Below are positions 28,546 to 60,360 of a DNA stretch of 64,000 nt, piece by piece. Origin of the DNA: a bacterium (GTDB taxonomy: Bacteria; Patescibacteriota; Minisyncoccia; Phycocordibacterales; Phycocordibacteraceae); assembly GCA_023269085.1 (NCBI GenBank), contig JAHFML010000001.1, positions 190,356-254,355 of the forward strand. Direction: 5' to 3'. The stretch's first letter is position 1. Each line of letters begins with the position of its first letter. A model generated the notes under the pieces. That model was not told the DNA's origin. It searched no databases and was given only the letters and a program-made list of their open reading frames with translations. Position numbers and translations under genes: made by a program.

Positions 28546-29115
28546 CTAGGGATGCTTCCTATTCTTTCTCAAGCTTGAAAAGATTTTATACACCTCGACG
28601 AACGAACCGCGCTTATTCATCCATTCTGGAGGATTGCCCGGCTTGAATCCTATCCACCATGTGTCATGTCCACGTTCGCCACCATGCTGATGCTTCAATT
28701 TCTTGAACGGAATATCCTTTTTGTTGAAAATCCATATTTGTGCGTCGAACGGCGAGATGCCGATACAAATAAGAAACTTATAGTTTTGATCTCGCAATTG
28801 CTGAAAGACATACTGGCCGTTTTCCCACTCGGTCGAAAATTTTATTTCCACTCGCTCGCCCTCGATGATACGGTCCGCATCACTATCCGGTGATCGCACC
28901 ACGTCGAACCCGCGCGCGGCGCACCATCCGGCGATCAACTGTTCGCCGATTTTGCCACGCTGGCGCGATGGTCGGTGTAGTATCCATTCGAACGGGCTCC
29001 CCTGCCAGCGCGCGGCATCTGCTTTTTCATATTCTCCACGAAGCCCGAGTGCAATGCTCGCAAGCAATTCAACGTCTTTATTTTTTAGGCGGCGTTCACT
29101 CATAGTAATTGGCAT
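28546..29115 (-). CDS. putative type II restriction endonuclease (PD-(D/E)xK)
   Basis: 189 aa; SPDSDAD...EGERVEIKFS fits PD...ExK; 16-bp overlap with upstream methyltransferase. Confidence 0.5.
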   Translation of the reverse strand: MPITMSERRLKNKDVELLASIALGLRGEYEKADAARWQGSPFEWILHRPSRQRGKIGEQLIAGWCAARGFDVVRSPDSDADRIIEGERVEIKFSTEWENGQYVFQQLRDQNYKFLICIGISPFDAQIWIFNKKDIPFKKLKHQHGGERGHDTWWIGFKPGNPPEWMNKRGSFVEVYKIFSSLRKNRKHP

Positions 29116-29984
29116 TGTGCTCGTTGCGGGACTCGTATCGGTGATGGTACGGCGCCCTGCGCAAAAGAAACTTCTTTATATTTTTCAAAGCGCTTCTTCA
29201 TTACCTCAATCGCTTCAGGGTTGCTGTCCACGAGGACAAACTCTCGCCCAAGCTCAAGCGCGGCTTCACCGAAGGTTCCGCTCCCGGCAAAAAAATCCAT
29301 GACCGTATCTCCCTCCTGCGAGGACGCGAGAACAATACGACGAATAATACCAAGTGGTTTTTGCGTCGGGTATCCGGTCTTTTCTTTTCCATTCGGACTC
29401 ACGATAGTGTGCCACCACGTGTCGGTCGGTGTCTTACCGAGCGCGGCTTTTTCAGGACCGACGAGCCCGGGTGCCATGTAGGGGATGCGATCGATCTCAT
29501 CATAATTGAAAATGTAATTCTCCGCGTCCTTCGCGTACCAGAATATCGAGTCGTGCTTCGCTGGCCATTTGTTTTTGCTCCGAGCGCCATAGTCATACGC
29601 CCAGATTATTTCATTCAAGAAATTCCCACGACCAAAGATGGTGTCGAGCAGAATTTTGCAGTAGTGCGCTTCGCGATAATCGATATGAAAATATATGCTG
29701 CCGTCTGCTGTCAAAATACGATGCGCTTCGTGTAATCGGGGTTCAAGAAATCCTAGGTAATCGTCAAATGCATCGTGATACGATTTTTCTCCAAGCACGG
29801 TCGTTCGATAGGTGTTTCCTTTAAATCCTATTCGGTCTCCTTGTTCATCGCGCGTTGTCTTGAGCTGTTTGCGAGATTGGACTTTGCCAGTATTAAACGG
29901 CGGATCGATATAGATAAGCGAAACCGATTCTGATGGCATCATGCGCAATGCCTCAAGATTATCGGCAAAAATGACCTTGTTCAT
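29100..29984 (-). CDS. DNA methyltransferase, beta-class (N6-adenine or N4-cytosine)
   Basis: N-terminal DPPF motif IV (LIYIDPPFNTG), C-terminal FxGxG motif I (FFAGSGTFGEAA). Confidence 0.85.
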   Translation of the reverse strand: MNKVIFADNLEALRMMPSESVSLIYIDPPFNTGKVQSRKQLKTTRDEQGDRIGFKGNTYRTTVLGEKSYHDAFDDYLGFLEPRLHEAHRILTADGSIYFHIDYREAHYCKILLDTIFGRGNFLNEIIWAYDYGARSKNKWPAKHDSIFWYAKDAENYIFNYDEIDRIPYMAPGLVGPEKAALGKTPTDTWWHTIVSPNGKEKTGYPTQKPLGIIRRIVLASSQEGDTVMDFFAGSGTFGEAALELGREFVLVDSNPEAIEVMKKRFEKYKEVSFAQGAVPSPIRVPQRAQCQLL

Positions 29985-30013: not shown

Positions 30014-30583
30014 TTAGAGCCCCGAGGCAGTGATGCCGGTGTTGATGCGCGAGAGGTAGTGCGACCGACGGGCACGAACGGAGGCGAGCGCGGCCTCGTC
30101 GAAGGCGAGGTCGGTGCCCGGGATCTCGCCCGCGTCGAGGCCGAGGGCGGCGAGGAGGCGAAGTACCGCGAGAATCTCAATCGCTTCGTGCTCGCTCTCG
30201 GGCGATGCTGCGAGTGCGGCGAAGAATCCGCGCATGATCGGGAAGATCTGTACATCATGTGTCTCGCCCGCGATAAGACGCGTGACGAGGCCCGACACCT
30301 GCGCCGCGCGTACCCGCGCGGCGGGCGTCGCGAGCTTCTCGAACCACCGCTCCTCAAGCACCGCTCCCGCGACCCGCCAATACTCCTTCCCGCGCACGAG
30401 CACCACGCCACTCTCCGCGAAGGTCGCGAGCGCCGCAGCGAGCTTCGCGCCTGAAACGCGCACGCTCTGCGCGCGCGCATACACGAGACCGAGGTCTTCG
30501 GTCAGGATAGCGACTGACGCCGTCGCCTCGCCGACCGGCGTGCGAGAGAGAACGATGCCGCGTGTCTCGTACTTATGCCGCAT
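30014..30583 (-). CDS. recO: DNA repair protein RecO (short form)
   Basis: 189 aa; N-terminal OB-fold sequence RGIVLSRTPVGEATASVAILTEDLGLVYARAQSVR. Confidence 0.6.
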   Translation of the reverse strand: MRHKYETRGIVLSRTPVGEATASVAILTEDLGLVYARAQSVRVSGAKLAAALATFAESGVVLVRGKEYWRVAGAVLEERWFEKLATPAARVRAAQVSGLVTRLIAGETHDVQIFPIMRGFFAALAASPESEHEAIEILAVLRLLAALGLDAGEIPGTDLAFDEAALASVRARRSHYLSRINTGITASGL

Positions 30584-30684: not shown

Positions 30685-33600
30685 CTACGCCCGAACAAGT
30701 TTGAATTGCACCGGACCAGTGGAGAGCGTCACGCTGTGAGGGCCCTCGCCTTGCACGACTTCGACCGCGTCGCCGGGCGCGAGCCCTTCGGCCTTGCGCG
30801 CCTGCGCAATCGCGCTCGCCATCTCGCGCTCGTCGCCTTCTCGAATAAGCTCAGGCGTGAGCGTCGTGTCGAGGGCGAGCTCATTGCCCACCAAAATCTC
30901 TTTCACATTCACTTCATCAGCGAGAACAGCCGAAAGCTCGCTCGTGAGCGGTTCAAAAATCGTGAGACTCGCGAGTGGCTGACGCACTTTGATGCCGGCC
31001 TTCTGTCGCAATTGTAATGCTTCTGACGCAAAGGCGCGCACGCGCGCCATGTCGGCGATCAGTGAGCTTACTTTGTCCGAAGAGTCGAGCGTGCCCCGCG
31101 AAGCCGCATCGGCGAAGTGGGACCAGTCGCACAGATGCACGCTCTCCGGCTCGCTTTCTTCTCGCACCGCGCGATACACTTCTTCGGCAATAAAGGGCAT
31201 CGCGGGCGCCATCACTTTCGACAGCTCTGCGAGCACGTGGCGCATCGTCGCGAGTGCATCCCGTTTGTCACCTCCTTCTTCTTTAAACCGATCGCGCGAG
31301 CGACGTACATACCACGCTGACAAATCATCGATGAAGAGCGCGAGCGGGCGCACCGCACGATCGAGCTCGTAGCTCTCATACCCTTCGGTCGATTCTTTCA
31401 GGAGCTCGGCGAGCCGCGCAAGAATCCATCGATCCAAGATATTCGTACTCGTCGCAGCACTCGGCGTGCCGTCGACATAGAGCTGATAAAAAGCGAGCAC
31501 ATTCATGAGCCGGCCGATGTTCTTCTTCGCGACCTCGTCGACGCCCTTCTCGGCGAAGGCGAGATTCTCTGCCTGCACGACTGGCGATACGAGGAGATAA
31601 TAGCGCAACGCATCCGCACCATACTTCTCGACGATGAGCAGGGGGTCGGGATAATTTTTCTTGCTCTTCGACAACTTCTTCCCATCTTCAGAAGAGACGA
31701 CGATGCCATTGACGATGACCTGCTCGAACGCCGGTTTGTTGAACAGGGCTCCGGCGAAGACGTGCAAATAATAGAACCATGCGCGGGTCTGATCGACGCC
31801 CTCGGCGATAAATTGTGCAGGGAACGTCTTCTCAAATTGTTCCTTGTTCTCAAACGGATAATGCCCTTGCGCATACGGCATCGCGCCCGAGTCGAACCAC
31901 GTGTCGAGCACGTCGCTCACGCGCGTGAGCGGCTCGCCCGCATCATTCACAAGCTGCACCTCGTCAATATACGGCAGATGCAGGTCGAGCTCATAGTCGC
32001 CGTTGTGCGGGAGTGGTGTGAAGTCGAGTGGATAGGGTGTCGCATATTCAATCGGATTGAACGCGTGCCGATATTCTTTCGTCTTTCCTGAAGCGATAAG
32101 CCGGAGTGATCTCACTGGATTCTTGTGCGAGACAATGAGGATGCGCGTATTCGTATACTGCTTCTCTAAATCGTAGAGCGCCGCACCAACCCTATGACGC
32201 ACTTGTTCTCCCGTTTCGCCGCCCTCTGGTGCAAGAGAGAATCGGTCGCTTGTCCCAGAAAAAAACATACTGTATTCGGCAATTGGCTTGCCGTCGAATA
32301 TACCTGCGCTTTTCTCGAAGAATCGCTCGTCGGTAATAATTGCGCTTCTTGCGAGACCGAGCTCATCCGCGACAATCTCTGCTGTCTCTTTCGTGCGTAA
32401 CAACGGCGAAGTGATTATGATATCGACACCGCCTGCTGTTACAAGCGTTTGTGCTCCTGCCTTTGCCTGCGCACGTCCAACTTCTGTAAGAGGATGCTTC
32501 ATTGCCGTCTTGGCCGTTGTGCTCATTACGTCTTCGACATTTGCAAGCGACTCGCCATGCCGCATCACAAAATACGTGTTGCCGCTTTTCTTCGTGTGCT
32601 TCTTCAACTCATCGACCGAGCCAATGACGGTGATCTCCCCCGCCGCATCCTTCCACAGAGGCATCACACTCGCCCAGAAGCGCTGGCGCGATATCGACCA
32701 GTCGCGCGCGCCTTCGAGCCACTTGCCGAAGCGACCCTCTTTAATATGCGCGGGCGACCACGCGATGCTCTCCGCATTCTTGAGCAAATCATCCTTCACC
32801 TTCGTCACTGCGACGAACCACGAAGTCGTCGCATAATTCAGAAGCGGCGTGTCGCAACGCCAGCAATGCGGATAGCTGTGCACAAGATTCTCCTTCGAGA
32901 AGAAGGTGCCATGTTCTTGCAGATATTTGATAACCTCAATGTCCGTGCCGAGCCGCACTTTGTCATCGTCGGACTTCGGCTTCACCTCCCTCCCCGCGAA
33001 GTCGGTCACCTCGCTCTTCATCGTGCCGTCTCCCTGCACATGCTGAATGAACGGGAGATTCTCTTTTTTGCCAAGCGCCATGTCGTCTTCGCCGAAGGCC
33101 GGTGCGATGTGCACGACACCCGTGCCCGTGTCGGTCGTGACGAAGTCGGCGGCGTAGACCTTCCAGCCGTTCTCGCGGTTCTTGAGCGTCGCGTCATTCT
33201 TATAATAATCAAACGGTGGTTCGTATTCGAGGCCGACGAGATCGCGGCCAACGAGGAGCCGCACCGGCCGCGAAGAAATAGTCTGGCCGAGCGGAGCGAG
33301 GAGATCCGAGGACTTTTCTGCAGTGGCCGGTGCGGCGACGATGTGGGTTTGTCCATCAACCTCGCGCACTTCGTATTCAATATTCTCCCCCACCGCGAGC
33401 GCGACGTTGCCGGGCAGTGTCCACGGCGTCGTCGTCCACGCGAGGAGATAGACCTCACCCGAGAGACCGAGCTTCTCTGGATTTTTTATTTTAAATTTCA
33501 CCGTGACCGAAATATCTTTGACATCCTTGTATCCCTCCGCGACCTCCTGTTGGGAGAGCGTTGTCTCACAGCGCGGGCAGATATGCATCGAGCGATAGTC

Positions 33601-34119
33601 CTCATAGACAAGCCCTTTGTCATAGACCTGCTTGAAGACCCACCAGACCGACTCCATGAAGGACGGGCTCATCGTCAAATAGGCGTGCTCCATATCGACC
33701 CAGCGCCCGATGCGCGGGATAATCTTCTTCCATTCGTCCGCATATTCAAACACGCTCGACCGACAGCGCTCATTGAACTTCTCCACGCCGTACGCCTTGA
33801 TATCCTTTTTATGTTTGAAGCCGAGCTCCTTCTCTATCATGTTCTCGATCGGGAGACCGTGCGTGTCCCAGCCCCACACCCGCGGGACATGATAGCCGCG
33901 CATCGTGAAGTAGCGCGGGACAGCGTCCTTGATAACGCTCGCGACAATGTGGCCATAGTGCGGCAGGCCGGTCGCGAAGGGCGGGCCATCGTAGAAAACA
34001 TATTCGCCCTTGGGCGCTTCCTTCGCGAGCGACTGCTCAAAAACCTTCTCGCGTTCCCAGAATGCGAGCGTCGCCTCCTCCCGCACGGCTGTTTCTGATT
34101 TTTCTGGCATAGACTCCAT
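30685..34119 (-). CDS. ileS: isoleucyl-tRNA synthetase (type 2) with embedded histidine-phosphatase (PGAM-like) domain
   Basis: start at MESMPEKSE; HYGH and KLSKS motifs; editing domain; ~195-aa insert with RHG and SH motifs (see findings). Confidence 0.9.
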   Translation of the reverse strand: MESMPEKSETAVREEATLAFWEREKVFEQSLAKEAPKGEYVFYDGPPFATGLPHYGHIVASVIKDAVPRYFTMRGYHVPRVWGWDTHGLPIENMIEKELGFKHKKDIKAYGVEKFNERCRSSVFEYADEWKKIIPRIGRWVDMEHAYLTMSPSFMESVWWVFKQVYDKGLVYEDYRSMHICPRCETTLSQQEVAEGYKDVKDISVTVKFKIKNPEKLGLSGEVYLLAWTTTPWTLPGNVALAVGENIEYEVREVDGQTHIVAAPATAEKSSDLLAPLGQTISSRPVRLLVGRDLVGLEYEPPFDYYKNDATLKNRENGWKVYAADFVTTDTGTGVVHIAPAFGEDDMALGKKENLPFIQHVQGDGTMKSEVTDFAGREVKPKSDDDKVRLGTDIEVIKYLQEHGTFFSKENLVHSYPHCWRCDTPLLNYATTSWFVAVTKVKDDLLKNAESIAWSPAHIKEGRFGKWLEGARDWSISRQRFWASVMPLWKDAAGEITVIGSVDELKKHTKKSGNTYFVMRHGESLANVEDVMSTTAKTAMKHPLTEVGRAQAKAGAQTLVTAGGVDIIITSPLLRTKETAEIVADELGLARSAIITDERFFEKSAGIFDGKPIAEYSMFFSGTSDRFSLAPEGGETGEQVRHRVGAALYDLEKQYTNTRILIVSHKNPVRSLRLIASGKTKEYRHAFNPIEYATPYPLDFTPLPHNGDYELDLHLPYIDEVQLVNDAGEPLTRVSDVLDTWFDSGAMPYAQGHYPFENKEQFEKTFPAQFIAEGVDQTRAWFYYLHVFAGALFNKPAFEQVIVNGIVVSSEDGKKLSKSKKNYPDPLLIVEKYGADALRYYLLVSPVVQAENLAFAEKGVDEVAKKNIGRLMNVLAFYQLYVDGTPSAATSTNILDRWILARLAELLKESTEGYESYELDRAVRPLALFIDDLSAWYVRRSRDRFKEEGGDKRDALATMRHVLAELSKVMAPAMPFIAEEVYRAVREESEPESVHLCDWSHFADAASRGTLDSSDKVSSLIADMARVRAFASEALQLRQKAGIKVRQPLASLTIFEPLTSELSAVLADEVNVKEILVGNELALDTTLTPELIREGDEREMASAIAQARKAEGLAPGDAVEVVQGEGPHSVTLSTGPVQFKLVRA

Positions 34120-34120
34120 A

Positions 34121-35788
34121 TTACATCCTCTCGGGTGCGCTGACGCCGAGGAGCGTGAGGCCATTCGTCATCGTGGTGGCGAAGGCGCGCGCGACGCGCT
34201 GTTTGTACGCCTCTTCGGGGCTCCCGAGCACTTGTTCGGATGCATAAAAAGAATTCCACGTGGCGGCAAGCGCGGTGAGGTAGGTGGTGAGAATATTCGG
34301 CGCGAGCTCCCGCGCGGCGCGCGCGACTACTTCAGGATAATGCAGGATGAGCCGCTCGATAGCATAGGGCTCGGATGGTTCTTCAATCCCGCCTTCTCCA
34401 TTCTCAGCATACGCGAGGATCTTCTTCGCCCGCACAAGCGCATACTGGAGATACGGCCCCGAATCGCCCTCGAGCGAGAGCGACTGCTCGGGGTCGAAGA
34501 TAATGTCCGAGCCCGGCGCTTGGCGCAGGATCATATATTTGATAGCACCAATAGCGACTTGCTCGGCCACATGCGGGTCCGGGTTCTTCACGAGCGCCTT
34601 GCCGATGATCTCGGTAATCAGGGCATCGGCCGTGATAACATTCCCCTCGCGCGAGCTCATCTTGCCCGAGGTGAGGCGCAAGAAGCCGTGCGGCACGTGC
34701 CGGGTCTTGGCCGCTATCGCCGGCGCGAGCTCGGCGAGCGCCGCGAGCACCACCTTGAAGTGTCCGATCTGCTCGGCTGCCGTCACGATAATCGAACGAT
34801 CATTCGGGACTCGCTCCTCTTTCAAAAAAGCGAGCCCGATGTCCTTGGCCTCATAGGTCGGCGTACCGCGACTTGTAACAAAAACGAGCGTGTGGAGCCC
34901 AACCTTCTCACCACGATAAATCACGGCGCCTTCGCTCTCTTCAAAAATTCCCTTTGCAATACCGTCATGCACCATGCGCGTACCTGGCTCGGCAGTCTCG
35001 CTCTCAAAAAAATACTGATCGAAATGTGTGCCGAGATGCTGATATATCTTCTCAAATGCTTCGAGTGATACAGCGCGCCCCTTCCGCCACAGATCCATGA
35101 CTGCCGTGTCGCTCGCCGTATAAATAACCGTGTTCAACGCATCGATTTCTGCCTTCGCTTCAGGCGAATCTTCATAGGCTTGGTTACCCGCAACATACGC
35201 CTCGCTCAATTCAAGCGTCGTGGTTGGTTCAACGATGCCGACTTTTTGCAATCCCCACAACGCCTTCGCGACATGCGGCCCGACATCGCCCTGATAATTT
35301 GCACGGATGACCGTCGCGCCTTCGTTCTCGATAAGCCGCGAGATTGATTCGCCAATCGTATTGCTCATCAAATGCCCAATATGCATTGCTTTGAATGGGT
35401 TCGGGTCGGTATACTCGATCACGACGCGCTGGCCTTCTTGCACATTCCCCTTCCCCCATCCTGTGCCTTGCGCAGAAGCCTCGGTGATGGCGCGCGCGAC
35501 GGCCGCGCGCGAAAGCGTGATGTTGATGAAGCCCGGGCCCGCGACCTCGATACTCTGTATCGAGGTCGGGCCGAGCACCGTCGAGACCCTGAGTTCTTTG
35601 ACCAGAAGCTCGGCCACCTCTTGTGGTCGTTTGCCAAGTTGCTTCGCCGCCGCTAGGGCCGCATTCGTCGCGTAGTCGCCATGCGTCATCTCGGTCGGCT
35701 GTTCGACGACAAAGGCGCCTGTCTGCCCGGCAGGCAGGCCAAGCTCCCGCAGGGCGCCAGCAACCGCTTCTCGAATCTTCTCTTCCAT
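34121..35788 (-). CDS. argS: arginyl-tRNA synthetase
   Basis: 555 aa; class I core with HVGH-type motif; C-terminal DALR anticodon-binding domain. Confidence 0.93.
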   Translation of the reverse strand: MEEKIREAVAGALRELGLPAGQTGAFVVEQPTEMTHGDYATNAALAAAKQLGKRPQEVAELLVKELRVSTVLGPTSIQSIEVAGPGFINITLSRAAVARAITEASAQGTGWGKGNVQEGQRVVIEYTDPNPFKAMHIGHLMSNTIGESISRLIENEGATVIRANYQGDVGPHVAKALWGLQKVGIVEPTTTLELSEAYVAGNQAYEDSPEAKAEIDALNTVIYTASDTAVMDLWRKGRAVSLEAFEKIYQHLGTHFDQYFFESETAEPGTRMVHDGIAKGIFEESEGAVIYRGEKVGLHTLVFVTSRGTPTYEAKDIGLAFLKEERVPNDRSIIVTAAEQIGHFKVVLAALAELAPAIAAKTRHVPHGFLRLTSGKMSSREGNVITADALITEIIGKALVKNPDPHVAEQVAIGAIKYMILRQAPGSDIIFDPEQSLSLEGDSGPYLQYALVRAKKILAYAENGEGGIEEPSEPYAIERLILHYPEVVARAARELAPNILTTYLTALAATWNSFYASEQVLGSPEEAYKQRVARAFATTMTNGLTLLGVSAPERM

Positions 35789-43465: not shown

Positions 43466-43540
43466 GGGCGACCTGTGGGGCTTGAACCCACGACCCTCGG
43501 TACCACAAACCGATGCTCTACCAGCTGAGCTAAGGCCGCC
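43466..43540 (-). tRNA. tRNA-His (GTG)
   Basis: cloverleaf folded by hand: G-1 encoded and paired to C73; D-stem GCTC/GAGC; anticodon loop TTGTGGT; T-loop TTCAAGC. Confidence 0.85.
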
Positions 43541-43595
43541 ATGTTGCGCAGCTATCTGCGCTTATTTTTTATACCACACCTCGCACGATTATGCC

Positions 43596-44129
43596 CTAAT
43601 ACCGCGGCGACTCTTCGGCGATGCCGGCGCGGTGATTCGCGAGGCGCGCGAGCGCGAAGAGGAGCGAAGAGAGGCGGTTCAGATACGCTTTCGTCTCAGC
43701 GCTTGCTGAACAAGCCCCCGCTTCGGCGGCCGCGATGACGCGACGCTCGGCACGACGCGCGATGGTGCGCGCGACATCGAGAATAGCCGAGAGCTCGGTC
43801 CCGCCCGCGATCGAGAAGCCCTTGAGCGGGGGAATTTCTTTTTCTATCTCGTTCACTAGCGCTTCGACGCGCTGCACTTCACTCGTATCGACCGTCTTCT
43901 CGGCTCCCGCGAGCTCGGCCTGGATGATGAAGAGTGTCTCTTGCACGGCGCGAATCGCTGTCGCGATTCGCGCCTCCCCCACCGCCCGCACCTTCACGAA
44001 GCCGAGATACGCGTTCAGCTCGTCGAGCGCGCCGAGCGCCTCGGGCAGTTCAGACGACTTCGAGATCCGCTGTTGGTCACAGCCGAAGGCGGTCGTCGTC
44101 CCTGCGTCCCCTTTGCCAGTGTAGAGCAT
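43596..44129 (-). CDS. ATP:cob(I)alamin adenosyltransferase, PduO/MMAB type
   Basis: 177 aa; LYTGKGDAGTTTAFGCDQ...ALGALDELNAYLG matches PduO-type N-terminus. Confidence 0.8.
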   Translation of the reverse strand: MLYTGKGDAGTTTAFGCDQQRISKSSELPEALGALDELNAYLGFVKVRAVGEARIATAIRAVQETLFIIQAELAGAEKTVDTSEVQRVEALVNEIEKEIPPLKGFSIAGGTELSAILDVARTIARRAERRVIAAAEAGACSASAETKAYLNRLSSLLFALARLANHRAGIAEESPRY

Positions 44130-44220
44130 ACCGCCAGTATACCGCGCCCGCGCTGCCTCTTGACTTTTTTATCAAATATGAGAGACTATCTTTGGCAACT
44201 TTTAAAGAGGAGAGATTGCC

Positions 44221-44370
44221 ATGCTCTATGTGCCTTGGACCGAGAAGCCCTCGATCATCCCGCATGTAAGCCGCGGGGCATTCTGGATAGGAGTTGCGGT
44301 TGCCATTTTCATTCTGGCAATCCTCTCCTTACCAGTCATCTTCCCCTTTCCGCACGACCTCCCCTACTGA
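44221..44370 (+). CDS. possible 49-aa membrane peptide (MLYVPWTEKPSIIPHVSRGAFWIGVAVAIFILAILSLPVIFPFPHDLPY)
   Basis: AGGAG RBS 8 nt upstream; TTGACT box upstream; hairpin+T-run terminator ~44396-44424 downstream; below the ORF-track size cutoff. Confidence 0.3.
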   Translation: MLYVPWTEKPSIIPHVSRGAFWIGVAVAIFILAILSLPVIFPFPHDLPY

Positions 44371-44589
44371 ACTACAAAAAGAGGTCGTGCGTTCACCGGA
44401 CGCCTTGCGTCCGGTTTTCATTTTGTGCCCGGGAGGCTTGGCCACGCATAATTTCTTGCTAGAAATTTGCGCGAGCCCCGCCTCGCGCCGTCGCGCTCCG
44501 GCCTTCAAGTCCTTGCTCCTGTTTGCTCCGCAAACAGTTGCGCCTCCCGGCCAAAATGAAAAGCACCCTTTCGGGTGCTTTTCATTTTG

Positions 44590-44676
44590 TGCCCGGGAGA
44601 GGACTTGAACCTCCATTCCCATAACAGGAGCTACCACCTCAAGGTAGTGCGTCTATCCAATTTCGCCACCCGGGCA
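44590..44676 (-). tRNA. tRNA-Leu (GAG)
   Basis: 87 nt; long variable arm; anticodon loop TTGAGGT; acceptor GCCCGGG/CCCGGGC, discriminator A. Confidence 0.85.
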
Positions 44677-44683
44677 GGTGTCT

Positions 44684-45196
44684 CTACTCTACCACAACTT
44701 CTTCTGTTTTCACTTCCTCAACAACCACCGGCGCCGCGACTGCTTCAACTTCGATCGTCGCCTCTTCTGCAACTTCAACCGGAAGCGTCTCATCGCTCTT
44801 CACGTGCATCATGCGCGCTCCGCGGAGCTGGCGGCGGACTGCCTTCGCCGCCTTCTCGCGGATGAAGTAGAGCTTCGCGCGGCGCACCGTCGAGCGCTTC
44901 ACTATCTCTATTGAGTCTATCGCCGGCGTGTAGAGCGGATACGTCTTCTCGACGCCGACACCCGAGAGCGTGGTGCGGACGGTGAAGGTCGCCCCCGCCT
45001 CGGTGCCGTGCTTGACCGCGATGACGAGCCCCTCGAAGATCTGCTTGCGGACATTCTTCGTTATCTTCTCCTTCTTGTCCGCACCCTTACCCTTCTTCAA
45101 GTCGACGATGTTCTGGGTAACGCGCACGGTGTCGCCCGGGCGTACCCCGAGCGCGGCGCGTCCTGCGGCGTTGACTGGCGTGATGACCTTCTGCAT
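44684..45196 (-). CDS. rplS: 50S ribosomal protein L19 with acidic/Val-rich C-terminal extension
   Basis: 170 aa; L19 core (GDTVRV...FEGLVIAVKHG...TFTVR...SGVGVEKTYPLYTP...RRAKLYF). Confidence 0.9.
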   Translation of the reverse strand: MQKVITPVNAAGRAALGVRPGDTVRVTQNIVDLKKGKGADKKEKITKNVRKQIFEGLVIAVKHGTEAGATFTVRTTLSGVGVEKTYPLYTPAIDSIEIVKRSTVRRAKLYFIREKAAKAVRRQLRGARMMHVKSDETLPVEVAEEATIEVEAVAAPVVVEEVKTEEVVVE

Positions 45197-45223
45197 ATAG
45201 GGCGCACTGTAGCATGACCGGCG

Positions 45224-45961
45224 CTACGCCGCAAATCTCGCGGTCGCCGCGGCGAAATCCCCGGGCACGGGCGCTTCAAAGGTGCAACGCTCGCCCGAGG
45301 GGAGCATGAGAGAAAGTGAAAAAGCGTGGAGCGCTTGGCGCGAGAAGCCGAGGAGAGCTGGACGGCCATTCGCATACAGCTTATCGCCAACGACCGGATG
45401 GCCGAGATGCTTCAAGTGGACGCGGATCTGGTGCGTCCGACCGGTCTTCGGGTGCGCCTCTATGAGCGCGACCGTCTCATTCGTCGCCCCATCGCGGCCG
45501 CGCGCGAGCACGCGCCAGTCGGTAATCGCTACGCGCTGTTTCTTCTCCTCCCTCGCGCGCGCGACGCCCCAGCGCGGCGGCACCGCGCGAATGCGCACGA
45601 TCTCGGCCTCTATTGTGCCGCTGTCGTGCGCGGGATGCCCATAGACGAACGCGCGATACACCTTCTCGGTCGTGCGATTCTGGAATTGCTCTTTGAGCAT
45701 GGCATACGCCTCTTGCGTCTTCGCGAGAATAAGCACGCCCGAAGTGTCGCGATCGAGCCGGTGCACGATGCCCGGGCGCGGGATTATCTCGCCTTGTGGG
45801 CTCTCCCATGGCTCGCCCACCTCTGCCATCATTGGGTATCGCGCGAGCGCCCAGTCGGCCACAGTCGGCTCTTCGGTGCGGCCGTCGCTGTGGACAATCA
45901 GCCCTGCGGGCTTGTTGATCACGACGACATCGGCATCTTCGTAGAGAATGGAGGGTTCCAT
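45224..45961 (-). CDS. RluA-family pseudouridine synthase
   Basis: start at MEPSILYEDADVVVINKPAGL; catalytic HRLDRDTSGVLILAKT. Confidence 0.85.
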   Translation of the reverse strand: MEPSILYEDADVVVINKPAGLIVHSDGRTEEPTVADWALARYPMMAEVGEPWESPQGEIIPRPGIVHRLDRDTSGVLILAKTQEAYAMLKEQFQNRTTEKVYRAFVYGHPAHDSGTIEAEIVRIRAVPPRWGVARAREEKKQRVAITDWRVLARGRDGATNETVALIEAHPKTGRTHQIRVHLKHLGHPVVGDKLYANGRPALLGFSRQALHAFSLSLMLPSGERCTFEAPVPGDFAAATARFAA

Positions 45962-45972
45962 ATTATTTGATT

Positions 45973-46048
45973 TGGTGCATCCTGCAGGACTCGAACCTGC
46001 GACCTTCTCAGTGTAAATGAGTTGCTCTACCAACTGAGCTAAGGATGC
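45973..46048 (-). tRNA. tRNA-Val (TAC)
   Basis: 76 nt incl. encoded CCA; anticodon loop TTTACAC; T-loop TTCGAGT. Confidence 0.85.
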
Positions 46049-46068
46049 GTGGTCAGGATTAATCCCGG

Positions 46069-46152
46069 TGCCGCGAGGGAGACTTGAACTCCCAACCCCT
46101 TGCGAGGACTAGCTCCTGAAGCTAGCGTGTTTACCAATTTCACCACCGCGGC
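46069..46152 (-). tRNA. tRNA-Leu (CAG)
   Basis: 84 nt; long variable arm; anticodon loop TTCAGGA; acceptor GCCGCGG/CCGCGGC. Confidence 0.85.
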
Positions 46153-46159
46153 AAGACTT

Positions 46160-46637
46160 GATTATGCTCATACTTTGCTGAACTTTCAAATATTTCCTCT
46201 TCAGCAACGGTATGCCTTTTCTATAATACAGGTAATTACACAAAATGACCGCTTCTCTCTTGGCGAACCGAAGTTGAACATACGTCGTGCCGGCATACCG
46301 AGTTATATGACCTTTTACATGAACCATGTCACTTATTCGCTTTCGCAACCAATCGATGAAGGGCGGACTCGCCGATAAGAAACTCGCGAAATAAGACATC
46401 GCCAAACTGAATGCGATGGTAAAGGTTCCCTGTTCCAGAATGTTTAATCCCAATCTTTGTTTTGATACCGAAACATTTCTTGAAAGTTACGACTTGTTCA
46501 AGATCTTTTGAAGTGAAATCAATATGTCTGCCGTCATTCAACAGACAGCCATCTGCCGTTAATAATCCGATTGCGTACGCAAATTTTGGTGACCATTCGA
46601 TCTTTACTGCCCCTTTTGGCTTTGGTCCCCTCTTCAT
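46160..46637 (-). pseudogene. frameshifted LAGLIDADG homing-endonuclease remnant in an AT-rich insert
   Basis: ORF 46329..46637 carries a LAGLIDADG-like block FAYAIGLLTADGCL; a second half continues in another frame (ORF 46109..46453, ...YVQLRFAKREAVILCNYLYYRKGIPLLKRKYL); local GC ~40%. Confidence 0.6.
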
Positions 46638-46733
46638 TGCCTTTATTATAAACTGACCTATATAGCGTATACCAATTTATCCACTATGCCAGAAAAAACG
46701 GCCTGCCGCGAGGCAGACCGAATTGGCTTCCAA

Positions 46734-47663
46734 TTACTTCAAATCATCGAGGTACGTCTTGAGCGCAAACGCTCGCCACGAACCCGACTCGACCCCGCGC
46801 AAGACGAAACGACTCACCTCGATTCTGAACTCCTCTTGCCTCCCCTGTTTGATCAACAGGGCGAGCTTTCGGATATCCTTCTTCTTCGGGTTGTTGGCCC
46901 CTTTCGCAAGAAAGCCGATCAACTCCTCATAAAGATGACGATCGTTCAGCAGAATGGTGGCAAGCTTCTCGAGCCTGACGATGCACTTCAAATACGCTGA
47001 CCGATAATCAGCCAGCCGCACCAGCAAGCTCGCGACAAGGCGCACCACGCCTCGTTCGCTTACCACCTCATTTTCAAGCATGAACTGAATCGCTTCCGCG
47101 CTTCCCGCGAGACCAATGTCGACATGCGGTTCGAGACATTTCGACTTGAGGAATTCGCTTGAGATATGTTCTATCCCCCGCTCCCAAGCCTTAATTTCTC
47201 GTGCCACCGCTTCATACGGGAGGCTTGCCATGCCGACAATCTCATCGCCACCGTATCTCCCGAAGGAAACACAGGGAGCCTGGTCGGTCGTAGCACCAAT
47301 ACTGCTCAAGAGAGCATCACCGGCTTCGTGTGAAGCGTTGTTCACCAGACTCAAGAACGACACATCCCCGAACACGATCCAGAGGTCATTCTCGGCGCCG
47401 ATTGACTCACGCCCTTCGGACAACCGGTTATTCTCAATCTCCTCCGGCAAAAGAATACCCTTGACCTTTTCATTCAGGAACTGGAACCATTGCCCCCGAG
47501 TGAACAAACCGGTAACCATGTCGACACCGGCGTGCACCAATTCGTCTCGGGCGGACCGGAGCTCTGATTGCAATCCGACATTGTTCCTCTGTATCTCCTT
47601 ATGGAGTTTCGGGTATCGTCTGTCGAAGTCGGCTTTCAATATGTCTTGGCACTTCATGCACAC
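46734..47663 (-). CDS. GGDEF-domain protein (diguanylate-cyclase-like) with C-terminal domain of unknown function
   Basis: 309 aa; GGDEF-type motif RYGGDEI; lower-GC DNA. Confidence 0.6.
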   Translation of the reverse strand: MCMKCQDILKADFDRRYPKLHKEIQRNNVGLQSELRSARDELVHAGVDMVTGLFTRGQWFQFLNEKVKGILLPEEIENNRLSEGRESIGAENDLWIVFGDVSFLSLVNNASHEAGDALLSSIGATTDQAPCVSFGRYGGDEIVGMASLPYEAVAREIKAWERGIEHISSEFLKSKCLEPHVDIGLAGSAEAIQFMLENEVVSERGVVRLVASLLVRLADYRSAYLKCIVRLEKLATILLNDRHLYEELIGFLAKGANNPKKKDIRKLALLIKQGRQEEFRIEVSRFVLRGVESGSWRAFALKTYLDDLK

Positions 47664-48033
47664 TCTCCTTATGCAAGTTGGGCTCCGCGTATGCGGAGCC
47701 CGGGTTGAAGTTCATGCGGCGTCCTTTTTGAAAGGCCGCCCCCAGACCTCGTCGGGGTCAATCAGCGACGATGATGGCAGTGCTGCAAACGCGGCACTGC
47801 GATGCGCTTCTTCTTCGCGCGCATCGACTGCTACGATGCCGAGCGCAACGTTCTGGCGAGCAAGCCCGCGAAGTGACCCATCAGGGTCCCACTTGTTGAA
47901 AAAATCTTTCAGGCTCTCTCGAGCCAAGAGATTGTTTTTCATACCATGCTCCTTGGTTGGTTACGGGAACAACTTCCAGTTAAAAGTATACCAAAATACC
48001 AAAAATAATCAACTATCCCAAATTTCTGTCTGT

Positions 48034-48108
48034 TGGTGCCCCCGCGAGGAGTCGGACCTCGAATAGCGGCTTAGAAGTCCGCAGTTATATCCGTTTAACT
48101 ACAGGGGC
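48034..48108 (-). tRNA. tRNA-Arg (TCT)
   Basis: 75 nt incl. CCA; acceptor GCCCCTG/CGGGGGC; D-loop AACGGATA with A20; anticodon loop CTTCTAA; imperfect 31-39 pair. Confidence 0.7.
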
Positions 48109-48138
48109 GCTTCTCCTCTACCCTACTCTATTCGTGCG

Positions 48139-48450
48139 CTATTGCGAAGGGTCAGCGAAGCGGTACACGCCCGAGACATACTTCGCTTCTTCTTGTGCTC
48201 GAGTCGCGAATATCTCGTTGATCGTCGTGAGTGACGACTTATCGAAGATCGGCGCTTTCTCGATTGGGGCTGTCCCTATGGTGCCGCCGTTCGCGACCGT
48301 GTCGAATGCCCACGCGTTCCACACGATACCAACTCCGAATGCCATGCACGCGAGCGCGATGAGTGCTATCCAGTCGCGCGCCGGATCGATCCGAGAAAAA
48401 ATCCGCAGGCGATTGAGAAACGACGTAAAAAAGGGTTGTAGGGCAGTCAT
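48139..48450 (-). CDS. hypothetical small membrane protein downstream of pilO
   Basis: 103 aa; one TM; last gene of the pilMNO cluster. Confidence 0.3.
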   Translation of the reverse strand: MTALQPFFTSFLNRLRIFSRIDPARDWIALIALACMAFGVGIVWNAWAFDTVANGGTIGTAPIEKAPIFDKSSLTTINEIFATRAQEEAKYVSGVYRFADPSQ

Positions 48451-48452
48451 GG

Positions 48453-49001
48453 TTATTGGGTGGTACTCGTCGCCGCAGGTGCAGGGAGCGATCCTGCGAC
48501 AAGGCTAATATCGGCGCCCCATCTGGAGCCCGCCTCTTTGTCGGTAATATCATGGGTTACCGTGAGTGTCGAGATCTCAATATCGTAGGGCGCATACTCG
48601 ATCGCGCCGACGGTACGCATGACCGCATCGAATGTTCCCTTCACCGAGAGAGCGAGCTTGAGAATAGGTTGCCCTTCACGAGTGCTGGCCGAGACAGAGA
48701 GGACGCTCACCTCGGTCTTCTGCGCCGCACCGAGCGCTTCGAGCGCAGTAATGAACGAGACAATGTCCGCTTCAGATACGAAATAGCTCTGTATCGTCGC
48801 CTCATCGCCCTTGATCTCTGCCAATGCCGTACGAACTGATTCGGTGCGAGCAACCGATCTGGTTGCAGCAGTTATCTGTTCCCCGAGACTGACGACCGTG
48901 GCGCTTTTCTGTGAGATGGTGGCATACTCCGCCACATAACCCATAAGGAGAATGCTCCCTACCACAAGAGCAATGATGAGATGTGTGCCGGAAGATTTCA
49001 T
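48453..49001 (-). CDS. pilO: type IV pilus assembly protein PilO-like
   Basis: 182 aa; N-terminal TM, coiled-coil, PilO-like C-terminus; ATGA overlap with pilN. Confidence 0.55.
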   Translation of the reverse strand: MKSSGTHLIIALVVGSILLMGYVAEYATISQKSATVVSLGEQITAATRSVARTESVRTALAEIKGDEATIQSYFVSEADIVSFITALEALGAAQKTEVSVLSVSASTREGQPILKLALSVKGTFDAVMRTVGAIEYAPYDIEISTLTVTHDITDKEAGSRWGADISLVAGSLPAPAATSTTQ

Positions 49002-49552
49002 GGTGCGAGCGTTATGACGATTGAGAAATCAATATTCGCATCCTTCGCGTATGCCGAGACCGGTAATGCCGCCGATCGTGCGAACGGCGCACCTTGGAGA
49101 GCAAGCTGATAGGCACGGAGAACATCGCGCGTCGCCGCCGTACCAAAGACCGAAAGCGTCCCCGGCTTCCCAGTAGACTGCGGCGTGTACGAGAATTGAG
49201 AAATCTTCACACCTGGGCGCGGGAGCGCCAAGACATCCTTGATAACCGCACTTGCCATGCGTACATCTGAAAGAGCGCCGAGCACCGATGTCTCTCTTGA
49301 GAGCACCGCGAGCCGCTTCGAGAGCACCGCTTCATCAGAAGACGCTAGCGCAACTGCTATACTCGACAGCCGCGCGTTCTCTGTCTTCTGCGCATCTGAC
49401 AGGAACAGGTAGGTCGGCAAGAGGAGAACCGCGATGGCGACAAGAAGCGCACTCCCGAACCAAACCGCCACAACAATGAGACGCATGTGATACGCTCGAA
49501 ACAGCTCGTGGCGTCGATCTCGCGGAAGAAGATTGGTGAACTCGTCAGACAT
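48998..49552 (-). CDS. pilN: type IV pilus assembly protein PilN-like
   Basis: 184 aa; N-terminal NLLPRDRR motif then TM helix, typical of PilN. Confidence 0.6.
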   Translation of the reverse strand: MSDEFTNLLPRDRRHELFRAYHMRLIVVAVWFGSALLVAIAVLLLPTYLFLSDAQKTENARLSSIAVALASSDEAVLSKRLAVLSRETSVLGALSDVRMASAVIKDVLALPRPGVKISQFSYTPQSTGKPGTLSVFGTAATRDVLRAYQLALQGAPFARSAALPVSAYAKDANIDFSIVITLAP

Positions 49553-50639
49553 GGGGAATATGGTCGCGCAGGGCGAGGCCGATCGATGTTCCGTAGGCGA
49601 GCGACTCGTTGTAGCTCACCGGCGGTATCCATTCGTCGCGCGATACGAAATTGGTGAATACGTCTCCGGACACGACCGGGATCCGAAGCGCATTCTCGAG
49701 ATACTCGGGGAACCCACGCGTCGAAGCATTGCCGCCGACGAGGAACACCTTCGACACCGGCTCATGCTGGCCGCCTTCGATCGCGCGTTCCTGCCAATAG
49801 CCAAGCCGTTGCGCGATCTCCTCGCGAATAGCAGAGACCGTGGAGAGCATCGCCGCGAGATACTCTTCATTCCCGGGCGTCGAGACGATGCCGCGCTCGT
49901 ACTTCACCTTACGCGCCTCGGCCTCCGTCACGCCGAAATATTTCTGTACGGCGAGCGTGAGCGCGTGACCGCCGATGCTGATTGTCGTCGTGAAGCGCGG
50001 GATCCTTCGAGCGACGATGGACATCTTCGTGGTCGTCTTCCCAACGTCGATGATGAGAACCGTCGACTCGTCCCCTTTCGGGAGCAGTGCGCGCGCGCAA
50101 GCGAACATCTCGCCCTCAAGCGCGCGCACCTCGATACCCGCGTCGTCGAACACGGCGAGCGTGCTCTCGACAATGCGGCGGGCGAACCCGACACCGGCGA
50201 CATTCATATCGCCATCCTTCCCGCGTCCAAGAGTGACGAAATCGAAAACTGTTTCTGCCGGCGGGAGCGGGACCACTTCATCAAGATGCTGTTCGATCGC
50301 GGTGCGCCACTCGTCCTTGTCTGTGCCGGGAACCGCCATCTCAAAGAGATATGATTTTGATTCGGGCAATGAGACATTTGCGGCGGAGACGCCAATCGAT
50401 TCTGATGCCGCCACAAGCGCCTCGACAACAGCACCTCGATCAACAACCTCTCCAAAAGAGAACGCGCCGGGCGGGAGCCGTACTTCAGCATAGGCCGCGA
50501 GCCGAAGCCCGTCGACATCTTCAATCAGACGCACCGCCTTCACGCCGCTCGTCGACAAGTCAATCCCTGCGAGCGGGAGCGCGATATATTGCGGCGGCGC
50601 GAGAAGCGCACGAACGCGTTCGGTAAGAACGAAAGCCAT
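49545..50639 (-). CDS. pilM: type IV pilus assembly ATPase-fold protein PilM
   Basis: start at MAFVLTERVR; actin/FtsA-like fold (GIDLSTSGVKAVRL...). Confidence 0.85.
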   Translation of the reverse strand: MAFVLTERVRALLAPPQYIALPLAGIDLSTSGVKAVRLIEDVDGLRLAAYAEVRLPPGAFSFGEVVDRGAVVEALVAASESIGVSAANVSLPESKSYLFEMAVPGTDKDEWRTAIEQHLDEVVPLPPAETVFDFVTLGRGKDGDMNVAGVGFARRIVESTLAVFDDAGIEVRALEGEMFACARALLPKGDESTVLIIDVGKTTTKMSIVARRIPRFTTTISIGGHALTLAVQKYFGVTEAEARKVKYERGIVSTPGNEEYLAAMLSTVSAIREEIAQRLGYWQERAIEGGQHEPVSKVFLVGGNASTRGFPEYLENALRIPVVSGDVFTNFVSRDEWIPPVSYNESLAYGTSIGLALRDHIPHV

Positions 50640-50679
50640 GCTCGCAGTATACAATGCGCCGTCGTGAACGCAGATATGC

Positions 50680-51015
50680 TTAGTGTGCACTCGTGCCCGG
50701 CGGTACCGTGCGATCAGGGGAGAGAAAAGCAAATGATTCGTCAGAGCCGACGGCAAAGAGCATGCCGTCACTCTCGAGCCCGCGAATGGTACGCGGTTCG
50801 AGATTCGTGACGAACGCCAGCTGACGACCGATGAGCGCGTCGGGCTCGGTGTACGCCGCAATACCGGAGACAATCTGTCGCGGCCCCGCCTCCTCGCCAA
50901 AGTCGACCGTGAGCCGCAAGAGTTTATCCGTATCGGGTACGCGTTCGGCCGAACGAACCGTACCGACACTCACCTCTATTTTAGAGAACTCCTCTATTGA
51001 AATTTTTTCTTTCAT
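50680..51015 (-). CDS. tRNA-binding (EMAP/Myf-domain) protein, CsaA-like
   Basis: 111 aa; FSKIEVSVGTV...QIVSGIAAYTEPDALIGRQLAFVTNLEPRTIRGLESDGML matches the tRNA-binding OB-fold family. Confidence 0.8.
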   Translation of the reverse strand: MKEKISIEEFSKIEVSVGTVRSAERVPDTDKLLRLTVDFGEEAGPRQIVSGIAAYTEPDALIGRQLAFVTNLEPRTIRGLESDGMLFAVGSDESFAFLSPDRTVPPGTSAH

Positions 51016-51031
51016 GACTAAATCCTAGTGC

Positions 51032-51445
51032 CTAGCGCCTATTTTGCCTAGTTAGGTAACTCGTGAGGATGAGCGCCGCGGCTGAAGCGTCGACATTCGC
51101 GCGCGCCTTCGGCGCGCGCGTCTTCACCTCCTTCTCGGGCGCGCGGTGCGCCTCGGCGCTCGTGAAGACTTCATTCTCGAAATATACGGGCACATTCGTA
51201 CGCTCTGTAATCTGTTTACCGAGCATGACCGCACTTTTGGCGATCGGATTGTGCCCACCCGCGAGCGTCCGTGAGTCCCCGATGACGACGGCTCGCACCT
51301 GTTCTCGCGAAATGAGCGCGCAGAGATCCTCAATGAGTCGCGGCGAGTTCGTGACCACCGAATTCGGGAACCCCATCATCCCCATCTCATCCGAGAGCGC
51401 GAGGCCGACCTTCGAGCTCCCATAGTCAATGCCGAGGTGTCGCAT
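51032..51445 (-). CDS. ruvX: Holliday-junction resolvase-like RuvX/YqgF
   Basis: 137 aa; LGIDYGSSKVGLALSD N-terminus. Confidence 0.9.
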   Translation of the reverse strand: MRHLGIDYGSSKVGLALSDEMGMMGFPNSVVTNSPRLIEDLCALISREQVRAVVIGDSRTLAGGHNPIAKSAVMLGKQITERTNVPVYFENEVFTSAEAHRAPEKEVKTRAPKARANVDASAAALILTSYLTRQNRR

Positions 51446-51725
51446 ATATATGGTATACTACTCGCCTATGCCCCCTTTTGCACCCATGCCCGCATTCTTC
51501 GGCGTGTTCTTTCCTATCCTCATCGTCGTTATTCTCTGGACCATCGTCCTCAAAGGCTTCGCGCTCTGGCATGCCGCCCGCAACGATCAAAGGAATTGGT
51601 TCATCGCTCTCCTCGTCGTGAACACGCTTGGCATCCTCGAGATCGTCTATCTCATCTGGTTCCGCCCCGCATCTTCTGCTACTGTCTCCAAAGCGCCGGT
51701 GAGCGACTCATCACCGGCGGCGTAA
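51429..51725 (+). CDS. small two-TM membrane protein (true start probably an internal Met)
   Basis: FFPILIVVILWTIVLKGFALWHAARNDQRNWFIALLVVNTLGILEIVYLIWF is a small-membrane-protein pattern. Confidence 0.35.
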   Translation: MPRCRIYMVYYSPMPPFAPMPAFFGVFFPILIVVILWTIVLKGFALWHAARNDQRNWFIALLVVNTLGILEIVYLIWFRPASSATVSKAPVSDSSPAA

Positions 51726-51729
51726 GTTC

Positions 51730-51817
51730 GGATGGTTGGCCGAGAGGTCTAAGGCAGTTGACTTGAAATCAACCGTACCGCAAGGTACCGCAGGTTCGAA
51801 TCCTGCACCATCCGCCA
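51730..51817 (+). tRNA. tRNA-Ser (TGA)
   Basis: 88 nt incl. CCA; long variable arm; anticodon loop CTTGAAA; acceptor GGATGGT/ACCATCC, discriminator G. Confidence 0.85.
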
Positions 51818-51878
51818 ACTTCGTTTATCAGTGTGTATACGCACACCGTACAAATAGTCTGATGCTATACTTCCCTCA

Positions 51879-52352: not shown

Positions 52353-52367
52353 TATACCTACAGTATT

Positions 52368-52439
52368 GCTCTCGTCGTTCAACGGATAGGACACCAGCTT
52401 GCGGAGCTGGCAATCAAGGTTCGATTCCTTGCGAGAGCA
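52368..52439 (+). tRNA. tRNA-Arg (GCG)
   Basis: 72 nt, no CCA; shares 5' half GCTCTCGTCGTTCAACGGATAGGA and T-arm with tRNA-Arg(CCG) at 58150; anticodon loop TTGCGGA. Confidence 0.7.
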
Positions 52440-53290: not shown

Positions 53291-53298
53291 AATAATAT

Positions 53299-53913: not shown

Positions 53914-53930
53914 GTGCTCGTATTTATCTC

Positions 53931-54002: not shown

Positions 54003-54015
54003 CTGATGGTAAATC

Positions 54016-54393: not shown

Positions 54394-54495
54394 CACACAT
54401 GAAATATATGCGTGGCGCTCTGTAGAAACTGATGAGTCCAAAGAGGGTCTACAGACCCTCTTTTTATTTGTCATGATTGTGGTAGATTCCCTTAT

Positions 54496-60350: not shown

Positions 60351-60360
60351 CTATTTATTT

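Follow-up and report, generated by a model that had tools for sequence, protein, structure and literature searches.

The isoleucyl-tRNA synthetase (IleRS) encoded by ileS in a 64,000-nt stretch of patescibacterial DNA (contig JAHFML010000001.1; the whole stretch analysed is hereafter called the window) almost certainly carries a complete branch-1 histidine-phosphatase domain inside a housekeeping type-2 enzyme. Judged from its sequence, the protein would be a synthetase of canonical type that has gained a new, enzyme-bearing insertion in its interior, of predicted function. Aminoacyl-tRNA synthetases rank among the most conserved of enzymes, and a second intact enzyme within the catalytic fold is very unusual in bacteria. 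We propose tentatively, at slightly less than an even chance, that the embedded domain is a small-molecule phosphatase physically coupled to the synthetase; the whole statement, identity and mechanism together, we regard as evenly balanced.

The synthetase and its embedded domain

A single unbroken minus-strand open reading frame (ORF; 30685..34164 in the ORF listing of the window) holds ileS, the likely start being the ATG at 34119, 1 nt past the TAA stop of argS, which gives 1144 aa. A protein identical to the window IleRS (P0001) is recorded in NCBI/ENA on a 307-kb contig. With the NCBIfam ileS model TIGR00392 the protein reaches 841.6 bits (cut-off 621.4) over two stretches parted by the insert, and the Pfam match to tRNA-synt_1 is likewise split in two, followed by Anticodon_1 and a weak DUF5915. 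Outside the insert, the protein aligns end to end with IleRS2 (8C8U, P. megaterium; 1ILE, T. thermophilus) at E ~1e-208, and shares with it, besides HYGH and KLSKS, the editing motifs of CP1, the type-2 C-terminal region and the first Cys4 zinc site. An alignment of 60 homologues shows little or no variation in HYGH and KLSKS, in the threonine-rich and GTG...DD editing motifs, or in that zinc site. Among solved structures the protein comes closest to IleRS2 (8C8U), to the IleRS of T. thermophilus and to the cytoplasmic IleRS of eukaryotes, in agreement with the initial annotation of this DNA, which had read a type-2 enzyme on either side of an inserted phosphatase; all the motifs that it had quoted (HYGH, WSISRQR, RHGE, SPLLRTKETAE, IVSHKN and KLSKS) were found again. 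By these comparisons the window ileS is predicted to encode an intact type-2 IleRS.

What sets the window protein apart from IleRS2 is a further 195 residues, forming a separate enzyme domain, between residues 478 and 480 of 8C8U. The alignment with this type-2 structure, which the initial annotation had suggested as a way of mapping the insertion point, pairs residues 9-509 of our protein with 9-478 and residues 705-1078 with 480-850, so that some 195 residues (510-704) stand where 8C8U has about one. The span first given for the insert, 31999-32586, is in frame and lies within 2-3 codons of the aligned one, 32008-32592.

The inserted segment matches Pfam PF00300 with E=1.1e-28 and 100.6-104.1 bits, against a gathering score of 21.7, over profile positions 2-169 of 194. 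Among 28 junction regions, 32-54% identical to that of the window, the alignment columns R26, H27, R81, E108, E141 and H171 are invariant; they correspond to R520, H521, R575, E602, E635 and H665 of the protein, and the R/H/R/E/H residues seen here are the full catalytic set of the branch-1 histidine phosphatases. RHGE is more than 90% conserved in the 48 close insert-bearing homologues, and in the near clade identity is about 72% over the synthetase core, as against about 40% over the insert. Invariance of the active-site residues while the domain around them diverges to about 35-40% identity points to selection on the active site, and the embedded domain is apparently catalytically competent. 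The initial annotation had claimed a complete domain with both catalytic histidines and had named their absence as fatal to its proposal; H521 and H665 are both present, and invariant in the 28 inserts.

Structure prediction agrees with the Pfam match and the 28-insert alignment. An AlphaFold2 model of residues 495-725 reached a predicted local distance difference test (pLDDT) score of 93.9 and a predicted template-modelling (pTM) score of 0.91, and Foldseek aligned the modelled domain, with probability 1.0 and template-modelling scores of 0.6-0.77, to many solved histidine phosphatases, among them GpgP Rv2419c, the mycobacterial hydrolase 6S2Q, PspA, PhoE, CobC, TIGAR and dPGMs. By sequence the closest solved relatives are PspA, TIGAR and PhoE. 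With PhoE/YhfR (1H2E, 1EBB), PspA (4IJ5), CobC (6NRU, 6E4B), GpgP Rv2419c (4PZ9) and TIGAR (3DCY) the insert shares the fold, the RHG, Arg, Glu and His set, a similar size and a short cap; it differs from them in being just 18-26% identical by structural alignment, in scoring below their curated cut-offs and in being embedded rather than free-standing.

Distribution, and the possibility of an artefact

The same Pfam architecture occurs in 48 of the 120 best homologues (57-80% identity, 1110-1203 aa), the other 72 being insert-less. The 48 stem from independent assemblies (NCBI, ENA, JGI and Logan) and bear names such as Minisyncoccota, Kaiserbacteria and Parcubacteria; long-read contigs are among the assemblies that share the in-frame junctions. 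A query with the insert alone, against a library of 1.84 billion representatives of 50%-identity clusters, returned 705 proteins at E<=1e-10, and IleRS sequence flanks the insert in 94 of the 141 best near-full-length matches, with core identities down to 33-45%. Finally, when a junction alignment of six sequences was run against GTDB, one genome per species, the junction was found in at least 241 species genomes, mostly Paceibacteria. The 80 of these 241 that were listed all span the entire region (Nomurabacteria, Zambryskibacteria, Kaiserbacteria, Paceibacteria and others), and a complete 721-kb chromosome is among the insert-bearing genomes. The insertion is old, largely vertical and under selection, and it extends over hundreds of Patescibacteria species.

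Against this background there is next to no chance that the feature is an artefact, be it a chimera of ileS with a phosphoglycerate-mutase-family gene or an intein or other mobile insertion removed from the mature protein. The initial annotation had itself named chimeric assembly as a possible refutation and had proposed a search for the insert in related genomes; there is also a slight dip in G+C content over the insert (0.49-0.53 at window positions 32050-32500, as against 0.55-0.60 in the ileS flanks), and the C-terminal linker ends in '...PLPHN', superficially like the C-terminus of an intein. However, an assembly chimera is rejected by the same in-frame junctions across the many independent assemblies, long-read contigs and complete chromosome included, and the orthologue search has thereby disposed of that doubt. 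An intein is rejected as well, in keeping with the earlier statement that splicing features are lacking: Pfam gave no Hint or homing-endonuclease domain in the window IleRS, both junctions are variable in the 28-sequence alignment and have no conserved Cys, Ser or Thr, the first residue of the insert is no conserved Cys or Ser, and the residue that follows HN may be G, Q, R, K, D, T, E, A, S or P. Besides, the segment models as a canonical histidine phosphatase. A protein search of a phage collection returned only weak, generic PGAM-family matches.

Insertion into a zinc knuckle

The insertion site lies between the motifs WSISRQR and DVLDTWFDSG. Over query positions 495-735 the 72 insert-less relatives have 44 residues in place of the 241 of the query, reading ...LWRCETCKK...ELEK...DLHK...VPCECG..., that is, a CxxC...CxC zinc knuckle, and 8C8U has a like knuckle, WECEGC ... 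CPVC. The insert sits between both halves of this Cys4 knuckle, in an excursion of the Rossmann-fold core, which upholds the earlier placement of the insert in the zinc-binding region of the catalytic core, the knuckle cysteines flanking the site in insert-less relatives. All four cysteines are kept in 72 of the 72 insert-less relatives, and none in 45 of the 48 close insert-bearing proteins; the window clade is without all four ligands of this second knuckle, and the window protein thus differs from 8C8U, which has its CxxC...CxxC ligands at the site. Among 61 distant insert-bearing representatives, both halves of the knuckle are kept in 22, one in 9 and neither in 30. The simplest reading would be an insertion into the knuckle-bounded excursion, followed by loss of the metal site in some lineages, that of the window included.

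Recurrence in ValRS and multiple copies

The domain is not confined to IleRS. P0124 is a valyl-tRNA synthetase (ValRS; 380-411 bits with valS models) with four intact-looking His_Phos domains, and PF00300 was found in 67 of the 119 ValRS relatives retrieved in a search with it, those with names being Gracilibacteria or Peregrinibacteria. RHG lies about 32 residues past WCISRQ in 61 of the 67, at the hairpin homologous to the IleRS site; six ValRS have a copy after the 'QWF' motif of CP1, and five have tandem doubles. These ValRS domains are 21-33% identical to the window insert. Within IleRS, P0202 and P0226 (1419 aa) bear a further copy, placed after the catalytic core and ahead of the anticodon-binding domain, and P0161 and P0244 carry tandem phosphatase copies. 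On one 439,541-bp ENA contig, the IleRS (L100:3001-7260, 1419 aa) has two copies and the ValRS (L099:1001-3667, 888 aa) has none, a single case, which may point to one host synthetase per genome.

It is in the light of the site and of these copies that a catalytically irrelevant domain has to be judged, namely a tolerated or structural insertion that replaces the zinc-knuckle scaffold and reflects a tendency to insertions in the candidate phyla radiation (CPR). The site is a surface excursion whose length varies among IleRS types (44 versus 241 residues), the window clade lost all four zinc ligands after gaining the domain, and of 77 ValRS copies 21 are without the catalytic Glu and 9 without the second His. 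Nevertheless, six catalytic or phosphate-binding residues stay invariant in IleRS inserts that are 32-54% identical, a pattern difficult to account for unless the active site is selected, and the free-standing relatives described below are ordinary single-domain enzymes. We therefore consider an inert domain very unlikely.

Gene neighbourhood and origin

The genes of the window stand in the order dCTP deaminase, tmk, argS, ileS, recO, (methylase), DUF11 protein, class II aminoacyl-tRNA synthetase, AI-2E transporter and metG. The insert-less relative P0066, on a 993-kb contig (L081), shares the order argS-ileS-recO-DUF11/CLIPPER-class II aminoacyl-tRNA synthetase-AI-2E transporter-metG, and argS-ileS-recO recurs at L083. 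By gene order the window ileS is the housekeeping copy, the positional orthologue of the insert-less ileS.

The closest free-standing homologues of the insert are ordinary single-domain proteins of 184-195 aa, about 36-42% identical to it. Six of their loci are informative, two further contigs being too short. At five of the six (L083, L087, L086, L095 and L097) the homologue lies directly downstream of argS; four of these five adjoin an insert-less ileS, and the fifth, L095, reaches the contig edge (Table 1). In the insert-bearing loci with enough flank, argS lies at most 2.5 kb upstream of ileS in 50 of 66. None of the top 150 representatives showed an end-to-end fusion of phosphatase and IleRS. 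The likeliest source of the domain is a small phosphatase gene that, to judge by these sequences, would still be separate between argS and ileS in relatives, and, as the phosphatase is linked to ileS both unfused and fused, local capture of the neighbouring gene would be the most economical origin.

Two observations concern the same neighbourhood. The insert-less relative has a gap of about 1.2 kb between argS and ileS without a called gene (L081:8809-10000; L082:6333-7524, with one 64-aa ORF at L082), in which tblastn found no phosphatase remnant. Between recO and the DUF11 gene of the window stand an N6/N4 DNA methyltransferase gene (29103-29984, minus strand) and a 189-aa ORF without a Pfam match (28549-29115, minus strand), neither of which is present in the otherwise syntenic L081; the pair may be a restriction-modification or mobile insertion.

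Table 1. Positions of ileS, its embedded domain and motifs, the adjoining genes, and free-standing homologues of the domain at other loci
Feature	Residues	Position	Strand	Basis or context
ileS, type-2 isoleucyl-tRNA synthetase with embedded domain	1144 aa + stop	30685..34119	-	ORF, TIGR00392, gene order
First Rossmann half, CP1/editing, start of second half up to first knuckle-hairpin arm	1-509	32593..34119	-	aligned to 8C8U 9-478
HYGH motif	54-57	33949-33960	-	motif mapping
First zinc site, CPRC / CWRC		33568-33579 / 32854-32865	-	60-sequence alignment
Editing motif WTTTPWTLPGN	228-238	33406-33438	-	60-sequence alignment
Editing motif GTGVVHIAPAFGEDD	332-346	33082-33126	-	60-sequence alignment
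WSISRQR motif	474-480			motif mapping
Inserted histidine-phosphatase (branch 1) domain with linkers	510-704	32008..32592	-	PDB alignment boundaries
Pfam His_Phos_1 match	517-687	32059-32571	-	PF00300
RHGE motif: R520 and predicted nucleophile H521	520-523	32551..32562	-	invariant in 28 divergent IleRS inserts
R575, second phosphate-binding Arg, in SPLLRTKETAE (571-581)	575	32395..32397	-	invariant, column R81
E602, predicted general acid/base, in DERFFEKSAG	602	32314..32316	-	invariant, column E108
H665, second catalytic His, in IVSHKN (662-667)	665	32125..32127	-	invariant, column H171
Second hairpin arm (DLHLPYID), DVLDTWFDSG, KLSKS, anticodon-binding and C-terminal domains	705-1144	30688..32007	-	aligned to 8C8U 480-850
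KLSKS motif	815-819	31663-31677	-	motif mapping
argS (arginyl-tRNA synthetase)		34121..35788	-	1-nt spacer to ileS; Pfam Arg_tRNA_synt_N, tRNA-synt_1d, DALR_1
recO-like gene downstream of ileS		30014..30583	-	Pfam RecO_N
Free-standing phosphatase P0169, L083		8001-8570		between argS and insert-less 931-aa ileS; stop 1 nt from ileS start; then recO, DUF11 gene
Free-standing phosphatase, L087		5004-5507		protein 62% identical to P0169; argS, phosphatase, insert-less ileS
Free-standing phosphatase P0192, L086		2107-2679		argS, phosphatase, convergent insert-less ileS
Free-standing phosphatase P0216, L097		581-1147		argS, phosphatase, convergent insert-less ileS
Free-standing phosphatase P0155, L095		3430-4011		argS, phosphatase, contig end
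Free-standing phosphatase P0175, L085				neighbours ROK kinase, HAD hydrolase, GlmS

Proposed function

According to our proposal the protein would be bifunctional: the synthetase part would charge tRNA-Ile and edit as usual, and the embedded domain would be an active phosphomonoesterase, possibly a phosphomutase, working through a phospho-H521 intermediate on what would most probably be a small phosphorylated metabolite. The coupling might consist in allosteric or regulatory cross-talk of the phospho-metabolite with Ile/Val charging, or in obligatory co-dosage. A metabolite is favoured as substrate by the nearest characterised families, PspA, CobC, PhoE, GpgP and dPGM, all of which act on small molecules, and by the acidity of the domain. 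The insert has a median isoelectric point (pI) of 5.6 and exceeds the core in basicity in just 24 of 65 proteins; for P0155, P0169, P0192 and P0216, free-standing forms linked to argS, the pI is 4.5-5.2. This acidity is weak evidence against direct binding of tRNA.

As to a known subfamily, membership was taken to mean a score above the curated cut-off of NCBIfam-type models. The top named model for the insert, RNase H/acid phosphatase NF005567, gave 94.5 bits against a cut-off of 326, followed by dPGM_arch NF038349 (194 positions) with 79.2 against 225, CobC with 54.9 against 162.9, PspA with 49.9 against 350, SixA with 32.3 against 74.5 and pgm_1 TIGR01258 with 21.6 against 81.7, the remaining dPGM models, from the PRK set, being lower. 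Membership in dPGM, CobC, PspA and SixA is rejected, the insert scoring under every curated cut-off.

These scores bear directly on the thought that the domain is the glycolytic phosphoglycerate mutase (PGM) of these organisms, a short archaeal-type dPGM whose fusion to IleRS merely ensures its expression. dPGM_arch is the best or second-best named match (79 bits for the insert, 99-102 bits for P0169 and P0192), and the 64-kb window holds no paralogue of the embedded phosphatase, nor any other histidine-phosphatase gene. The dPGM models nevertheless stay far under their cut-offs, and the insert, on a reading of its sequence, is without the ERHYG context and the WRRS motif, the substrate-binding residues specific to dPGM. 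Such a mutase would fill a gap, PGM being reported missing from several shallow Parcubacteria clades, but one complete genome of the Gracilibacteria is noted to be without any glycolysis (Jaffe et al. 2020, PMC7304191). The ValRS of Gracilibacteria, as seen above, carries these domains, often several. On balance we consider a glycolytic mutase quite unlikely.

Returning to the coupled small-molecule phosphatase, we find that its internal placement looks selected rather than accidental. Recurrence at the same hairpin in two paralogues, together with the lack of an end-to-end fusion despite the adjacent gene, suggests that physical coupling to the core matters.

Several points weigh against our proposal and should be stated. 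With all models of characterised subfamilies far below cut-off, no specificity can be transferred from them to the insert. A full-length AlphaFold2 model, built with 60 close homologues, reached a pTM of only 0.44, with the Rossmann halves below a pLDDT of 50 and the phosphatase above 90, and how the phosphatase pocket faces the synthetic site, the KMSKS loop or the acceptor end of the tRNA is not readable from it. One free-standing homologue, P0175 at L085, lies in a sugar-metabolism setting away from argS. A neighbour-joining tree of the core gathers 41 of the 46 insert-bearing proteins in one split, with two insert-less ones inside, and is not cleanly monophyletic; neighbour-joining trees of the IleRS core and of the phosphatase domain do not separate single from multiple gains or show the direction of fusion. 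Lastly, the recurrent fusion to Ile and Val synthetases and the adjacency to argS and ileS could equally mean that the substrate belongs to the aminoacylation cycle.

This last point deserves to be followed further. A phosphatase coupled to aminoacylation may repair or license a phosphorylated component of charging, or a phospho-metabolite may gate the charging of Ile and Val; this reading, both its forms taken together, we regard as doubtful. If true, it would add a new class of synthetase accessory domain, common to IleRS and ValRS across the CPR: the charging component might be the 3' end of the tRNA or a serine of the synthetase that a kinase toxin has phosphorylated, and the metabolite gate might serve these cells, with their minimal regulation, as an inbuilt check of translation against nutrients or energy. 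HipA/HipT-type kinase toxins phosphorylate the KMSKS-loop serine in other class I synthetases, and the histidine-phosphatase superfamily includes protein phosphatases such as SixA, PGAM5 and Sts-1.

In its narrower form, this thought has the phosphatase act on the aminoacylation machinery itself, either clearing the tRNA 3' end, ahead of charging, of a 2'/3'-phosphate or pyrophosphate that blocks it, or dephosphorylating a phospho-synthetase, for example at the KMSKS-loop serine. The linkage to synthetases is repeated and specific, with inserts in the IleRS of hundreds of species, at the homologous hairpin in ValRS and, as free-standing forms, between argS and ileS; no end-to-end fusion appeared in the top 150 representatives even though the free-standing gene ends 1-2 nt from the ileS start; a macromolecular target would suit the tandem arrays, with their up to four domains, better than a metabolite would; and the superfamily does include the protein phosphatases named above. 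On the other hand, the domain is acidic, with no basic enrichment relative to the core, and is therefore unlike an RNA-binding surface. No member of the superfamily is known to act on the ends of RNA; blocked 3' ends would affect every tRNA and not those for Ile and Val alone; and the full-length model offers no usable geometry. We consider this direct action on the charging machinery unlikely.

Comparison with known systems and significance

Joining a phosphatase to an enzyme of nucleic acids is not in itself without parallel. The Rv2228c-type RNase H/acid phosphatases (NF005567) do so, and the insert matches their phosphatase half; theirs, however, is a C-terminal end-to-end fusion, whereas ours is an internal insertion, at 94.5 bits versus a cut-off of 326. 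A curated IleRS with an extra enzyme domain likewise exists, to go by the model name, in ileS_w_GNAT (NF040702), but the extra domain is a GNAT there and a histidine phosphatase here, with a score of 340.7 for the window protein and a cut-off of 1999. Eukaryotic synthetases accrete GST, WHEP, EMAPII and UNE domains, which are mostly terminal and bind protein or RNA. The likeness lies in the adding of extra modules that are kept within lineages; the difference is that here an enzyme of metabolic type, with an intact active site, sits inside a bacterial catalytic fold.

The initial annotation had not recognised such a fusion as described, and this holds for what could be searched: the full-text literature yielded no published description of a phosphatase-bearing IleRS, subscription journals lying outside the search, and a 2026 preprint on the domain architectures of 96,219 IleRS sequences nowhere contains the word 'phosphatase'. 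The proteins themselves are public, with precomputed Pfam matches. Six of the 11 named insert-bearing IleRS bear the NCBI label 'class I tRNA ligase family protein', which is also given to ValRS, the generic naming being due to the embedded domain.

The arrangement is not a one-off: it extends to hundreds of Patescibacteria species, recurs in ValRS at the same hairpin and comes in two to four copies. Four of the findings go beyond the initial annotation, namely the spread of the insert through a lineage, its free-standing relatives beside ileS, the like insert in ValRS, and the lost zinc ligands around the site in the window clade. An unfused counterpart beside ileS is a classic signature of functional partnership, and the domain offers a cheap and concrete target in the search for a new translation-linked activity, in organisms that are known mostly from their genomes. 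It also bears on an annotation gap, the missing phosphoglycerate mutase of some Parcubacteria, and it documents the loss of a structural zinc site following the insertion of a domain.

Other features of the window

Away from ileS, ten tRNA genes are spread over about 19 kb (43466-62728), among them two copies of tRNA-Arg(TCT) on opposite strands (48034-48108, minus; 53931-54003, plus). A 1121-aa ORF (9393-12758, minus strand), whose sole Pfam match is a 53-residue peptidoglycan-binding domain, may be a large, poorly annotated surface protein of the CPR type.

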